The position numbers were made by a program, and so were the translations under genes. Under the pieces are notes generated by a model. It ran no database searches and was not told where the DNA came from. It saw only the letters and a list, made by a program, of their open reading frames with translations. Positions 29,773 to 38,848 of a stretch of DNA of 64,000 nt are shown one piece after another. The stretch comes from Verrucomicrobiales bacterium (GTDB lineage: Bacteria > Verrucomicrobiota > Verrucomicrobiia > Verrucomicrobiales > Verrucomicrobiaceae), in assembly GCA_043770175.1 (NCBI GenBank), contig JAYVIO010000332.1, forward strand, positions 2,213 through 66,212, given 5' to 3'. Numbering within the stretch: position 1 is the first letter of the stretch; every line of letters starts with the position of its first letter.

Positions 29773-29973
29773 ATGAGCACATTCACAGAAATCGAAACGG
29801 CAGTCTCCACGCTGCCGCCGGAACAGCAGGAAAGCCTGCTGCTGTTCCTCGCGGATCGTCTGCGTGATGCACGCGCCTCGCTGCCTGAGCCGCGCAGTTT
29901 CACACCGGCTCAGATTCAGCAGTGGATCAAGAGCGACGAGGAAGACCTGCGCTCTTTCCGGGCAGTCGCATGA
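29773..29973 (+). CDS. Small acidic protein, putative antitoxin (66 aa)
   Basis: MSTFTEIETAVSTLPPEQQESLLLFLADRL resembles small antitoxin-like proteins; its stop overlaps (ATGA) a PIN-like start. Confidence 0.6.
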   Translation: MSTFTEIETAVSTLPPEQQESLLLFLADRLRDARASLPEPRSFTPAQIQQWIKSDEEDLRSFRAVA

Positions 29974-30080
29974 GATGGTTCCTCGACTCCATCAACCCTC
30001 GTATCCTACGCGTTCCTGCATGCAGCGATCTCAGAAAAACCAATTTGTCAGGCAGTTGCAATCTGCTCCCGTTTCCCTGA
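29970..30080 (+). pseudogene. Truncated PIN/VapC-like toxin stub
   Basis: ATG at 29970 gives MRWFLDS (PIN-type N-terminal hydrophobic-D motif), then loses PIN character and stops after 36 codons. Confidence 0.4.
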
Positions 30081-30192
30081 AGGCATTGCCTTCGGGAAGG
30101 GGGTTCCGGAATGAATATTCTGGGCATCCCTGTCAGGAATCGCCTCCCGACCCCTTCTGCGACCACTTCCTGCCCTGGATTCATTTCATGAA

Positions 30193-31269
30193 TCATGGCA
30201 CGAACATGTATGACAAAATGCCCCGAATTCTTCGCGTCGACTCCGGGTGGTCTGTTTTGTTGAGCAGCAGGTTCAGCTTGTGCGCAATGCGGTATTCTTG
30301 CGCCTCTGGTCCTGGGAAAAGAACATTTACTGTTTTCTCCATGTCTTCGCCAAGTGCTGGATCGCCAGGCTTTTCCTTGTCCAAAAACTGCGTGCTTTCA
30401 AAAGCCCTCTCAATGGCCCTTGGCTTGTCTGCCGCACTTGTCAAACATCCCAGCGCCATTCCCTCACCAATTAGTCCCGCATTTCTTTCCTGTTTTATCA
30501 TCCGCGTGATCAGTTTCTCATGAGAGGTTGAGTCGTTTAGCAAAAAGACAATCATGGGCGCAAACTCAAGCATATTGCCTGCTGACGCCTTCAGCAGCGT
30601 TTCCACTTCCTCGTCCTTTAGCTTATTCAATTCAAGCAAACGGCGCGCCACGCACAATCGCCACAAAGGATTTACGGCCAGCAATTCTTTTTTCATCGCC
30701 ACGAGATCGTCTGCGTCGGGCTGTCCGGAAAACCATCTTTGCATTTGTGACCGCAAAGACATCAATTGCTCCAGATATTTGTTCCATTGGTCTGGAAGCT
30801 TGCATGGAAAAAATACATGGTCCTGTCCTGTTGCTTTGGCATCATACCGATATATCACAGTACCTGGAACCTCATACCATTCCCATCTGTTCAAAAGTTC
30901 AAAAAGGAAGACACTTGGATTCGATCTAAAGTGACCTTCCGGAATGGGTTCGCTCCGAACCTGAAAGCGAACATCCCCCCCTTTTTGGCTATTGTCCGAC
31001 GTATGCCCATCTTCAACCAGAAGCACGTTCCGAACATAGCTTGTAGCTGGTCTTCCATCTGTCATGCGCGTCTTTTCGTGCCGAGCGTCAGTGATGCGGA
31101 CATTACCCCAGTACCAGGTTAATGGGGCATCGCCTTTGGCCAGTTCCCTTGTCAAGCGGGCCACGCCACGGCAAGTCAAGACCAGTTCCTCCGGGCCGGA
31201 GGCTGCCACGACCTTGTCGGCCAAGGCGATCAGAGGCATCCAGCAAAAAAGGGTAAGAATATGTTTCAT
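30193..31269 (-). CDS. Low-GC secreted hypothetical protein; candidate immunity/partner protein
   Basis: 358 aa, signal peptide MKHILTLFCWMPLIALA, start overlaps the upstream stop (ATGA), atypical composition. Confidence 0.7.
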   Translation of the reverse strand: MKHILTLFCWMPLIALADKVVAASGPEELVLTCRGVARLTRELAKGDAPLTWYWGNVRITDARHEKTRMTDGRPATSYVRNVLLVEDGHTSDNSQKGGDVRFQVRSEPIPEGHFRSNPSVFLFELLNRWEWYEVPGTVIYRYDAKATGQDHVFFPCKLPDQWNKYLEQLMSLRSQMQRWFSGQPDADDLVAMKKELLAVNPLWRLCVARRLLELNKLKDEEVETLLKASAGNMLEFAPMIVFLLNDSTSHEKLITRMIKQERNAGLIGEGMALGCLTSAADKPRAIERAFESTQFLDKEKPGDPALGEDMEKTVNVLFPGPEAQEYRIAHKLNLLLNKTDHPESTRRIRGILSYMFVP

Positions 31270-37727: not shown

Positions 37728-37860
37728 GTTGGCGATGGTTGACATCGCTGAAGGGCGCGGCCAGCCCAGCAGTGCTGCGCACCGCTTTGCAGGCGAGCGC
37801 CGTTGGCAGTGGTTTCAATCCACTGCCAACCACCGTCAACAACAGTCAACCACCATCAAC
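37728..37860. repeat. Structured intergenic element: 11-bp hairpin plus 10-nt CAAC-phased repeats and their inverse
   Basis: gttggcagtgg/ccactgccaac stem (37802-37830); CAAC at 37827, 37837, 37847 and 37857; GTTG at 37728 and 37738. Confidence 0.7.
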
Positions 37861-37871
37861 TTTTCATCGCC

Positions 37872-38789
37872 ATGCCCTACGACCCTATGTTTCCGCTCAC
37901 CAATGCCGCGCTGGTTTCAGCACAGTTCCGCACGCAATTTGCCGCTTTGTTTGATCTCATTCAAAGCATCCCCGTCGGGCCGCCCGGACAAAACGGCAGC
38001 GATGGCACCAGCGTCACCGGCGCGGTGATCGACAACACCACCACGCTCAATCCCGGCAACCCGGCGGAAGCCAGCGTGAGCTGGGATGGGGCGAACGTGC
38101 GTTTCACGTTTGGCATCCCACGCGGACAGGACGGCGTGAGCAGCCCGCCCATCACGAGTTTCATCATCGATGGCGTGAACACCCTGAACCCCGGCGACAA
38201 TGCCACGGTGCAGACCAGTTTTGATGGTGCCAATGTGCGGCTGCTGTTTGGCATTCCGCGTGGGAATGACGGCACGAATGGCAGCAACGGCAACGATGGC
38301 GGCCAAGGCCCGCCGTTCACCAACTTCATCGTCGATGGCGTCAACATGCTGAACCCGACTGATCCCGCGACGGTGCAGACGAACTTCGATGGCAACGCCG
38401 TGCGGATGATCTTCAACCTGCCGCGTGGTTTTACCGGCAACGATGGTGGCACGGGTGCGCAAGGCGGACCGGGGCCGCAGGGGCCGCCGTTTGCGAACGC
38501 GGTGGTGGATGGCGTCCTCACGCTACCCGCCGGTGAGAACGCGACGGTGCAGACGAACTTTGATGGCAGCAATGTGCGCTTTCAGTTCGGCATTCCGCGC
38601 GGCAATGACGGCGGCAGCGGTCCGCAAGGCCAGCCGGGCGAAGTGACGAACGCGCAGCTCAACAGCGCGATCAGCGGCACAAGCAACAACAGCAACGGCG
38701 TGAGCACGCTGGACACAGCCTTCACCGATCCCGATGCGGAATCGTTGCGTCAGGCGTTCAACGCGCTGGTGCTGGCGCTGCGGCGGTGA
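37872..38789 (+). CDS. Collagen-like/tail-fibre-like repeat protein (305 aa, no signal peptide)
   Basis: Four repeats of ~38 aa ending in (I/L)PRG, separated by short Gly-X-Y runs (GPPGQNGSDG, GAQGGPGPQGPP); helical C-terminus. Confidence 0.8.
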   Translation: MPYDPMFPLTNAALVSAQFRTQFAALFDLIQSIPVGPPGQNGSDGTSVTGAVIDNTTTLNPGNPAEASVSWDGANVRFTFGIPRGQDGVSSPPITSFIIDGVNTLNPGDNATVQTSFDGANVRLLFGIPRGNDGTNGSNGNDGGQGPPFTNFIVDGVNMLNPTDPATVQTNFDGNAVRMIFNLPRGFTGNDGGTGAQGGPGPQGPPFANAVVDGVLTLPAGENATVQTNFDGSNVRFQFGIPRGNDGGSGPQGQPGEVTNAQLNSAISGTSNNSNGVSTLDTAFTDPDAESLRQAFNALVLALRR

Positions 38790-38848
38790 CAACACGCTGC
38801 ACCTGAACTACAGCGGGGCAGATCACATTCCAATGCTCGGCTGAAACC

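Follow-up and report, generated by a model that had tools for sequence, protein, structure and literature searches.

A probable composite locus in a Verrucomicrobiales bacterium: a strain-specific cassette with polymorphic-toxin-like architecture beside a phased repeat array and an Fn3 gene module

Polymorphic toxin systems, including Rhs systems and contact-dependent inhibition (CDI) loci with the gene order cdiB-cdiA-cdiI, form the comparison set for the locus described here (Zhang, de Souza, Anantharaman, Iyer and Aravind 2012, PMC3482391). As in these systems, one part of the locus has an accessory gene, a large exported protein whose N-terminal part is constant and whose C-terminal part is exchangeable, and a small gene that changes alongside the latter; RHS proteins substitute in its relatives, and the C-terminal module and downstream gene are foreign in composition. 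The locus lies in a 64,000-nt stretch of a Verrucomicrobiales contig (JAYVIO010000332.1, positions 2,213 to 66,212; hereafter the window). Three co-oriented genes with signal peptides, encoding proteins of 887, 832 and 358 aa (W887, W832 and W358), lie on the minus strand, and genes encoding a fibronectin type III (Fn3) protein (W268) and a collagen-like protein (W328) lie divergently on the plus strand, with an array of nine 21-nt units between the two groups. The initial annotation placed these features between core genes and proposed that they form a self-contained five-gene module. The genes, the array and the flanking core genes are all present as it described them (Table 1); their grouping into one module is not supported. 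On balance, the region appears to be composite, combining two units that are inherited independently and share a slot between aroB-batA and smc, the content of which varies from strain to strain. The left-hand trio is predicted, by its architecture only, to be of polymorphic-toxin kind. The right-hand part is a new, widespread Verrucomicrobiota module of unassigned role, the hallmark of which is the phased array.

The two units come apart in the closest relatives of the window. By blastn, locus L005 matches the window at 36557-37701 (88% identity) and at 37846-47785 (95% identity), with no match leftwards of 36557, a position 72 nt upstream of the W887 start codon. Left of its array, L005 carries a different gene with Asp-rich repeats of calcium-binding type (TSP3-like by eye; no Pfam family). 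Locus L012 has an Fn3 protein with 88% identity, the same synteny with smc and one extra array unit, and the W328 gene is absent. Left of its array (L012:8-7071) are genes encoding a Sel1-repeat secreted protein, an Hsp70-like protein and a dynamin-like protein that matches Eleos LeoBC (E-value: 2e-25). The gene contents of L005 and L012 indicate a stable array-Fn3 core and, to the left of the array, a slot whose content varies between strains. A family-alignment scan of one genome per GTDB species gave 69 Fn3 loci. Their gene neighbourhoods were built with a codon-usage gene caller, as antisense open reading frames (ORFs) in GC-rich DNA confound plain ORF clustering. None of the 69 loci contains a gene for W887 or for the W832 N-terminal domain. 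In the co-occurrence survey, the five genes were together nowhere except in a 10-kb contig of the same strain, the sole look-up match for the 887-aa protein, on which four of the genes are complete and the collagen-like ORF is cut off after 39 nt. The closest relatives keep the array, the Fn3 gene and smc, one of them the collagen-like gene as well, and have other genes left of the array; a self-contained module of five genes is not supported.

Other genes were observed beside Fn3 modules. Type I restriction-modification genes (HsdM, HsdS and HsdR) adjoin the array-Fn3 module on its upstream side in nine loci, usually divergently (L030, L035, L045, L047, L049, L054, L059, L073 and L080; L054 and L073 belong to one genome). 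In L007 and L008-L010, the Fn3 proteins are identical and a 247-aa secreted protein is common to the DNA left of the array. The second gene there encodes a protein of 695 aa in L007 and of 1023 aa in L008-L010, the two sharing the N-terminal TSP3 part only, and the third encodes a protein of 320 or 310 aa, respectively. The 695-aa form has an HExxH motif (HEIMH), and L007/L008 represent a second polymorphic locus beside an array, an operon of TSP3-metalloprotease type. In L046, a 2,931-aa Rhs-type protein is encoded beside the Fn3 module. The Fn3 module thus tends towards conflict-gene neighbourhoods, which may reflect either its function or shared hot-spots.

The organization of W832 and W358 is what suggests a polymorphic toxin. 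In W832, a Thr/Gly-rich linker joins a conserved N-terminal domain (window 33270-33764) to an exchangeable module at the C-terminus (aa 410-832, window 31269-32537). The N-terminal domain, made up of a signal peptide and three DDYA-x-N-x-GQLK repeats, is common to the second gene of every other W887-type cassette (41-48% identity). The C-terminal module is 30-36% identical to modules in P0002, P0003 and L086 (30% in L086), which stand in different N-terminal contexts; either P0002 or P0003 adjoins a Hint-domain toxin fragment. The proteins encoded by the second genes of L086 and L088 share 68% identity over 770 aa, beyond which they diverge; the genes downstream of them are also different. A small gene (280-380 aa) occupies the W358 position in W887-type cassettes and differs wherever the C-terminus differs. 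The GC content at third codon positions falls along W832 from 0.78 in the N-terminal domain to 0.69 and then to 0.60 at the C-terminus, and is 0.54 in W358, compared to 0.70-0.77 in neighbouring genes; W358 (overall GC = 0.50) is compositionally foreign. The W832 and W358 genes overlap by 4 nt. W358 is a candidate partner of the C-terminal module of W832, or a candidate protective protein for it. In L002 (positions 1-468), the DNA upstream of a homologue of this module encodes a protein end with a Hint-type motif (VYNIEVETEHCYFVG) and a short C-terminal domain, an arrangement typical of PT-HINT polymorphic toxins. The W832 coding sequence also contains, near the end of the Thr/Gly-rich linker, a 19-nt inverted repeat (window 33091-33131; 95% complementary, 3-nt loop).

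The W887 family has 179 matches (85 with E-values below 1e-30) among 1.84 billion cluster representatives. The AlphaFold2 (AF2) model of W887 (predicted local distance difference test [pLDDT] score: 85.5, predicted template modelling [pTM] score: 0.74) consists entirely of beta-hairpins, and its best Foldseek matches are Rhs and teneurin YD shells (E-value: 5e-6), with a template modelling (TM) score of only ~0.1. Classification of W887 as an Rhs/YD-repeat protein was rejected on this score and because W887, W832 and W358 have no match to PF05593. A two-partner secretion (TPS) or CDI system was likewise rejected: no Omp85, POTRA or TPS Pfam domains were found, and the W887 model is not a barrel according to its Foldseek matches.

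Eight contexts of the W887 family (counting both L088 and L089) share a single gene order, in which a W887-like gene is followed by the gene for a W832 N-domain protein and then by a further gene. The W887-like protein and the two that follow are of 887, 832 and 358 aa in the window, 897, 822 (TSP3) and 280 aa in L085, 911, 1173 and 332 aa in L086, and 905, 1145 (TSP3) and 296 aa in L088/L089; in L081, a protein of 898 aa is followed by one of 931+ aa. In L082 and L083 (W887-like proteins of 863 and 908 aa), the N-domain forms a separate TSP3 protein of ~250 aa (266 and 244 aa, respectively), a split adaptor that is followed by an RHS-repeat protein (1072+ and 1778 aa). Upstream of the W887-like gene are the array and divergent Fn3 gene in the window, a 21-nt array and a co-directional W268-type Fn3 gene in L082, a 970-nt intergenic region with no array in L088/L089, and the contig end in L081, L083 and L085. 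The 209-aa gene upstream in L086 is Fn3-like by eye only; its assignment to the W268 type was unsupported by the family hidden Markov model (HMM) and by Pfam. Immediately ahead of the W887-type gene in L086 and L087 is a different, small tandem repeat (GAAAGCTGAAATTT; period 14/7, ~3.3 copies; L086:642-688 and L087:113-159). Roughly 8 kb from the L088 cassette, a PIN_3-domain gene and a small upstream partner (L088:1007-1704) are likely to be a toxin-antitoxin pair.

The array, the hallmark of the right-hand module, has in the window nine units with a phase of exactly 21 nt, each composed of an 11-nt palindromic core (ATGARYTCATT, a palindrome of 10-12 bp) and a 10-nt free spacer. It is degenerate and was not reported by Tandem Repeats Finder (TRF) in the window; its reality is supported by the phase, by autocorrelation at lag 21 (z = 5.6 against other lags) and by its conservation, with whole-unit indels, in orthologous loci. 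Within the 64-kb window, the core is matched without mismatches only between 36728 and 36781. The array is located ~115-305 nt upstream of the Fn3 transcript start. Among the related loci, arrays were found in 40 of 59 that were testable, at most 1.3 kb upstream of the Fn3 gene (TRF score of at least 50), and in ~44 of the 59 with a lower threshold or autocorrelation. Per kb, there are 0.61 arrays upstream of the Fn3 gene and 0.0012 in the rest of these loci (one in 848 kb). Base periods are 21 nt (30 loci), 22 nt (12 loci) or 43 nt (2 x 21.5; 2 loci), with no others; these figures include doubled and tripled super-periods, and the copy number reaches 19. Unit sequences are unrelated between loci, even where one genome holds paralogous loci (L014, L015 and L048). 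The units are enriched in palindromes (mean best arm of 5.9 vs 4.6 in shuffles).

Comparison of close strains separates the core from the spacer. In the alignment of the window, L005 and L012, 62 of 88 core columns are invariant vs 29 of 80 spacer columns (Fisher p = 1.2e-5), and orthologous arrays differ by whole-unit indels. In five contigs encoding an identical Fn3 protein, the 800-nt intergenic region is near-identical except for the array, which differs by two exact 21-nt indels and a substitution cluster. In the four metagenomes of the source study (X1-X4), the assembly across window 35900-37300 breaks at the array in three, and short variant contigs carry the related cores ATGGGATCAT and TGGATTCATTTTC; at low coverage, this weakly suggests that the array carries strain-level diversity in the source community.

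Helix-turn-helix (HTH) regulators are linked to the array. In 13 loci, the array and the Fn3 gene are separated by a co-oriented gene encoding a 93-133-aa HTH_3/XRE protein, and these proteins show weak similarity to the controller (C) proteins of restriction-modification systems. Related HTH proteins pair with related units: L029 and L045 both have TTCCGnCGGAA, and L035 and L076, with closely related HTH proteins, have CATCC-N3-GGATG and CACCC-N4-GGGTG, respectively, a change that is symmetric in both half-sites. The fixed period of two helical turns, the conserved cores, the linked HTH genes and the position upstream of the transcript together favour a DNA-level protein-binding array, and we accordingly favour a predicted operator or upstream array of binding sites. 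Sigma-70-type proteins are also encoded near Fn3 modules, one or two genes upstream in L018, L022, L025 and L034 and nearby in L037, L044 and L066. These are either 466-580-aa proteins with regions 2 and 4 plus an extension or extracytoplasmic function sigma factors, and are possible alternative regulators in loci that have no XRE gene.

Other explanations of the repeat were rejected. A coding repeat is incompatible with the periods of 22, 43 and 44 nt, which break the reading frame. Clustered regularly interspaced short palindromic repeats (CRISPR), taken here as 24-48-nt repeats with unique spacers of similar length and cas genes, do not fit contiguous 21-nt units (an 11-nt core and a 10-nt variable part) with no cas-like genes nearby. 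A plasmid iteron or partition centromere was discarded because no rep or par genes are present in the window region or in the related loci that were examined.

The Fn3 gene almost certainly starts at 36985, as homologues begin there, the 30 codons upstream change non-synonymously between strains and RNA contigs begin at ~36950. Metatranscriptome contigs from four lake runs, derived from a strain ~92% identical to the window, cover only the Fn3 gene. Three begin at 36950-36955 and one at 37021; all reach 37701 and one extends ~150 nt further. These ends indicate that the abundant RNA is a monocistronic Fn3 message of ~760 nt and that the array is upstream of the transcript start, predicted at ~36940-36950. 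In the promoter and 5' untranslated region (UTR), 70 of 82 columns are invariant in three strains (window, L005 and L012). A motif just upstream of the transcript, TTGAAC-N17-GTCAAAG...CTGAAAC, also occurs in L013 and L014, and a sigma-70 promoter scan gave no consensus match. Within the first Fn3 codons (window 37014-37039) is a weak terminator-like hairpin followed by an eight-T run (GGGG ATTTTTTTTG, encoding GIFF); this tract could be prone to slippage.

W268 has 141 homologues. Nearly all of the 69 Fn3 loci are in metagenome-assembled genomes (MAGs) of Verrucomicrobiota (Prosthecobacter, Brevifollis, Verrucomicrobiaceae, Limisphaerales and Chthoniobacterales); the remainder comprise two Flavobacteriales and a few binned elsewhere, and several genomes have two or three copies. 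In the AF2 model of W268 (pLDDT 88.8), a disordered N-terminal peptide is followed by a helical domain (helices 44-58, 71-124 and 128-133) and, at the C-terminus, by the Fn3 domain. Foldseek against PDB and viral libraries matched the Fn3 domain only (E-value: 1e-7, target TM 0.87), and the helical domain had no match. The Pfam fn3 family is matched by 21 of 30 family members, W268 itself being below the threshold. In the 237-aa forms, the disordered N-terminal peptide has three aromatic-Asp-x-Pro(-Gly) repeats, such as RFDDPSVRFDAPGIFFD (window 36985-37075; alignment A1, columns 34-62). This peptide is conserved at the protein level in distant homologues, and W328 also begins with MPYDP; it could be a docking or export signal.

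W328 is a modular fibre-type protein. Its ends are conserved (N-terminal ~45 aa and C-terminal ~50 aa), and in the middle four short Gly-X-Y runs (3-6 triplets) alternate with four beta modules of ~35 aa (...VDGVNTLNPGDNATVQTSFDGANVRLLFGIPRG). The protein scores 13.7 bits against Pfam Collagen, below the cut-off of 27.2, which several homologues exceed at 31-49 bits. Its family comprises 1,488 clusters that are without exception annotated as hypothetical, and one Prosthecobacter MAG has at least eight paralogues. Homologues of 74 to ~420 aa are encoded directly downstream of the Fn3 gene in ~35 loci, again with conserved ends and a variable middle. A prophage or phage origin of the module was rejected. 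IMG/VR (2.9 million viral contigs) gave one weak match, to the Fn3 domain only, and in a phage collection W328 had one weak match and W268 had none; the genes around the module are cellular, with no capsid, terminase or tail genes.

Table 1. Features of the region between aroB-batA and smc, in window coordinates.
Feature	Coordinates	Strand	Remarks
aroB and batA/VWA	26721-29714		core genes, left flank
W358, 358 aa, Sec signal	30193-31269	minus	last gene of the left cassette
W832, 832 aa (840 aa from an upstream TTG), Sec signal	31266-33764	minus	
W887, 887 aa (895 aa from a TTG), Sec signal, all-beta	33822-36485	minus	first gene of the cassette
Left edge of homology to L005	36557		everything further left is strain-specific cargo (blastn)
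Phased array, 9 x 21 nt, GC 0.48	36645-36833		between the divergent groups
Fn3 ORF (W268)	36895-37701	plus	almost certain start 36985 (237-238 aa)
Fn3 promoter and 5' UTR	36903-36984	plus	conserved
Collagen-like ORF (W328)	37803/37872-38789	plus	database gene call of 305 aa
smc	39052-42972		core gene, right flank

The database searches support the view that the locus is undescribed, as the initial annotation had proposed. All five proteins are below the curated cut-offs of Pfam, and NCBIfam and PADLOC gave zero matches. In PHROGs, the matches were one unnamed family (E-value: 1.4e-11) and, for the Fn3 and collagen-like proteins, weak hits to tail-related families. A PDB sequence search with W887, W832, W358 and W328 found no relative, and Rfam gave chance-level matches only across the region. 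In agreement with the initial annotation, none of the five proteins has a Pfam match to an integrase, transposase, capsid, type VI secretion system (T6SS), RHS or barrel family. There are no signs of mobile-element boundaries in the form of a nearby tRNA or flanking direct repeats. The Sec signals of the minus-strand trio, assigned by eye, are MKPTLPCLLLSALFSLMILPAIRA/DE, ...LITAWLFSGMLLQSASA/AA and MKHILTLFCWMPLIALA/DK. Literature searches found no description of an array-Fn3-collagen module.

The proposed model for the two units is as follows. W887 would be an accessory or carrier protein built from beta-hairpin repeats. W832 would combine a constant N-terminal trafficking or adaptor domain with an exchangeable effector module of ~420 aa, and W358 would be a partner, possibly protective, that travels with this module; both the module and W358 may have been acquired through recombination. 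The array would offer a row of sites to a DNA-binding protein that is sequence-specific and probably a dimer, and a spacing of two helical turns would place all of these sites on one face of the DNA. It would regulate the Fn3 promoter and may extend this control to the divergent cargo operon. For about a quarter of the related loci, the XRE HTH protein is a plausible binder, and in the window it would act in trans. The Fn3 and collagen-like proteins are inferred to form a base with a trimeric beaded fibre.

The toxin assignment of the trio has to be weighed against a surface-structure or adhesin operon, for example of beta-rich calcium-binding surface proteins, which we regard as doubtful but deserving of serious consideration. 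W887 is Ser/Thr/Gly-rich and all-beta and resembles OspA-like single-layer sheets as well as Rhs, and its TM score makes the likeness to Rhs shells local only; relatives of the cassette carry TSP3 calcium-binding repeats. Several further results count against a toxin. No toxin or immunity domain was detected in W832 or W358 with Pfam, NCBIfam, PADLOC or PDB sequences, and the same libraries gave no toxin family for the W832 C-terminus or its relatives. Comparison of W358 with the genes behind related C-termini was negative by BLAST and hhalign (hhalign probability <1%); homology between the four genes behind W832-type C-termini was not detectable in every case, and no known Imm family was matched by any of them. 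W358 has its own signal peptide, and export is unusual for an immunity protein against a cytoplasmic toxin. An adhesin operon, however, does not account for the constant N-terminus combined with a swapped C-terminus and a swapped downstream gene, which is the hallmark of polymorphic toxins, or for the RHS proteins in the same position in L082 and L083, the foreign composition exactly over the C-terminal module and W358, and the Hint-domain toxin fragment that adjoins a relative of this module. The polymorphic toxin delivery locus suggested by the initial annotation thus fits the architecture of the left trio and lacks a known toxin domain. The same annotation alternatively proposed a trimeric fibre or adhesin with an exchangeable tip. 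W328 bears out the modular fibre; an exchangeable tip on an extracellular fibre is unsupported, and neither W268 nor W328 has a signal peptide. It is unlikely that all five genes form one integrated system, in which the Fn3/collagen apparatus presents or delivers the W832 effector and the array co-regulates both operons. The array does sit between the two operons, and the cargo begins 72 nt upstream of the W887 start, so that its promoter is probably in the shared, array-proximal DNA. In L082, genes for a W268-family protein (HMM E-value: 6e-34), a W887-like protein, a TSP3 adaptor and an RHS protein follow a 21-nt array, all in one direction; L086 has an Fn3-like gene upstream of its W887-like gene, by a resemblance seen by eye only, and other Fn3 modules adjoin TSP3 or Rhs proteins (L007/L008, L005 and L046). 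Two W887 cassettes adjoin Fn3-type genes, in the window and L082 (a third, in L086, by eye only), and this adjacency makes a functional link between the units possible, a point that tells against their independence. A single system is made less likely by the 69 Fn3 loci, none of which has a W887 or W832 N-domain gene, by the unrelated genes that replace the trio in the closest strains, by the L088 cassette, which has neither an Fn3 gene nor an array, and by the nine modules that adjoin Type I restriction-modification genes instead. Moreover, the trio has signal peptides whereas the Fn3 and collagen-like proteins do not, and L012 has no collagen-like gene.

The predicted operator faces two alternatives, of which one is improbable and the other highly so. 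In the former, the array has no specific binder and acts through DNA shape (in-phase bends or wrapping by nucleoid proteins), or is a tolerated hypermutable minisatellite. This would fit a period fixed at 21-22 nt with unit sequences that are unrelated between loci, the many units without palindromes and the lack of a regulator gene in most loci. It would also fit the array being the sole hypervariable intergenic part among strains with identical Fn3 proteins, with its whole-unit indels, and the breaks in metagenome assemblies. Two observations count directly against an operator: a significant palindrome is absent from about two thirds of array units, which makes a purely structural DNA role possible, and no DNA-binding (HTH) gene is present in the window locus or in the whole 64-kb window. 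Neither shape alone nor neutral slippage, however, predicts the conservation of the core while spacers drift, and XRE HTH genes are linked in 13 loci, with related proteins paired to related units. The >500-fold enrichment of arrays at one position, across Fn3 identities down to ~30%, argues against neutrality. The highly improbable alternative is expression of the array as RNA, either as a row of hairpins (a protein sponge or leader) or as a short heptad-repeat peptide. Many units can form 4-9-bp stems with 3-5-nt loops, the 42-44-nt super-period units alternate in orientation, and in the window two ORFs run through the repeats, one of 112 aa (36551-36889, minus strand) and one of 30 aa. The metatranscriptome contigs record presence only and are compatible with low-level transcription of the array, which also weakens the case for a purely DNA-level element. 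A conserved reading frame is excluded by periods of 22, 43 and 44 nt in 14 loci, and the codon-usage gene caller does not call the array ORFs. The contigs from all four runs begin downstream of the array, Rfam has no match, and the window core AATGAATTCATT has no loop.

If the composite reading of the region is correct, the strain-specific cargo cassette is separated from a conserved module, which corrects the picture of a single five-gene system. On the left, a recurrent cassette of uncharacterised families has been delineated in metagenomic contigs and a MAG, and may give polymorphic effectors a new route that depends on Sec; such systems have barely been studied in this phylum. On the right, a conserved cis-element has been uncovered, a phased array with private units upstream of one Fn3 family. 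If the arrays are rows of operators, they would offer a natural system for cooperative, address-specific repression. A broader proposal, which is rather unlikely, is that the array-(HTH)-Fn3-collagen module is a hitherto unrecognised, multi-copy Verrucomicrobiota platform in which each copy has a private operator array, its period fixed at two helical turns, and sits beside an exchangeable slot for conflict cargo. In such a platform the array would be each slot's own regulatory address and the Fn3/collagen fibre a shared effector or sensor, the cargo so far comprising polymorphic-toxin cassettes, Rhs/TSP3 proteins, Type I restriction-modification genes and an Eleos-like defence gene. Should the module mark cargo slots, conflict islands would be seen to follow a new organising principle.

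In comparison to known systems, the left cassette departs from described polymorphic toxins in that the window proteins have no known toxin, immunity, RHS, TPS, PT-HINT or VgrG/PAAR domain. W887 represents a new family distinct from Omp85/TpsB, export is apparently by plain Sec signals, and the candidate immunity protein W358 has a signal peptide. W887 is like the YD shells of Rhs proteins, teneurins and Tc toxins in being modelled as long antiparallel beta-hairpins, with Rhs and teneurins as its best matches. Unlike them, it has no RHS_repeat or YD motif, the TM score is only ~0.1, and there is no sign of a closed shell.

W328 resembles the collagen-like fibres of phages and of Bacillus (BclA type) in its attachment-type N-terminal segment, its Gly-X-Y runs and globular beta modules, and its lack of a signal peptide, and it has weak matches to a PHROG of phage tail fibres and to the head-fibre gene of a Bifidobacterium phage. 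It differs from these collagen-like fibres in being encoded outside a prophage, in the possible occurrence of at least eight copies per genome, in its very short Gly-X-Y runs and in having no C1q-like C-terminus; its Fn3 partner family is essentially absent from the 2.9 million viral contigs.

CRISPR arrays, repetitive extragenic palindromes (REPs) and bacterial interspersed mosaic elements (BIMEs) share with the array short intergenic repeats that have a conserved and a variable part and are in some cases palindromic. The period of 21-22 nt is far too short for these systems, the 'spacers' are of 10 nt, there are no cas or RAYT genes and, unlike REP/BIME elements, the unit is not dispersed elsewhere in the window. 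The array also resembles the operators of Cro/CI (XRE) and C proteins, iterons, parC/ParR and the 22-bp Pho boxes, which likewise have short, often palindromic units at whole helical turns upstream of a promoter. It further resembles XRE/C-protein operators in the XRE genes that lie beside it in 13 relatives and in its conserved cores and free spacers. It differs from them in having 9-19 contiguous units as compared to two or three operators and no regulator, rep or par gene in the locus, and its unit is private to each copy, even within one genome, and always tied to an Fn3 gene.

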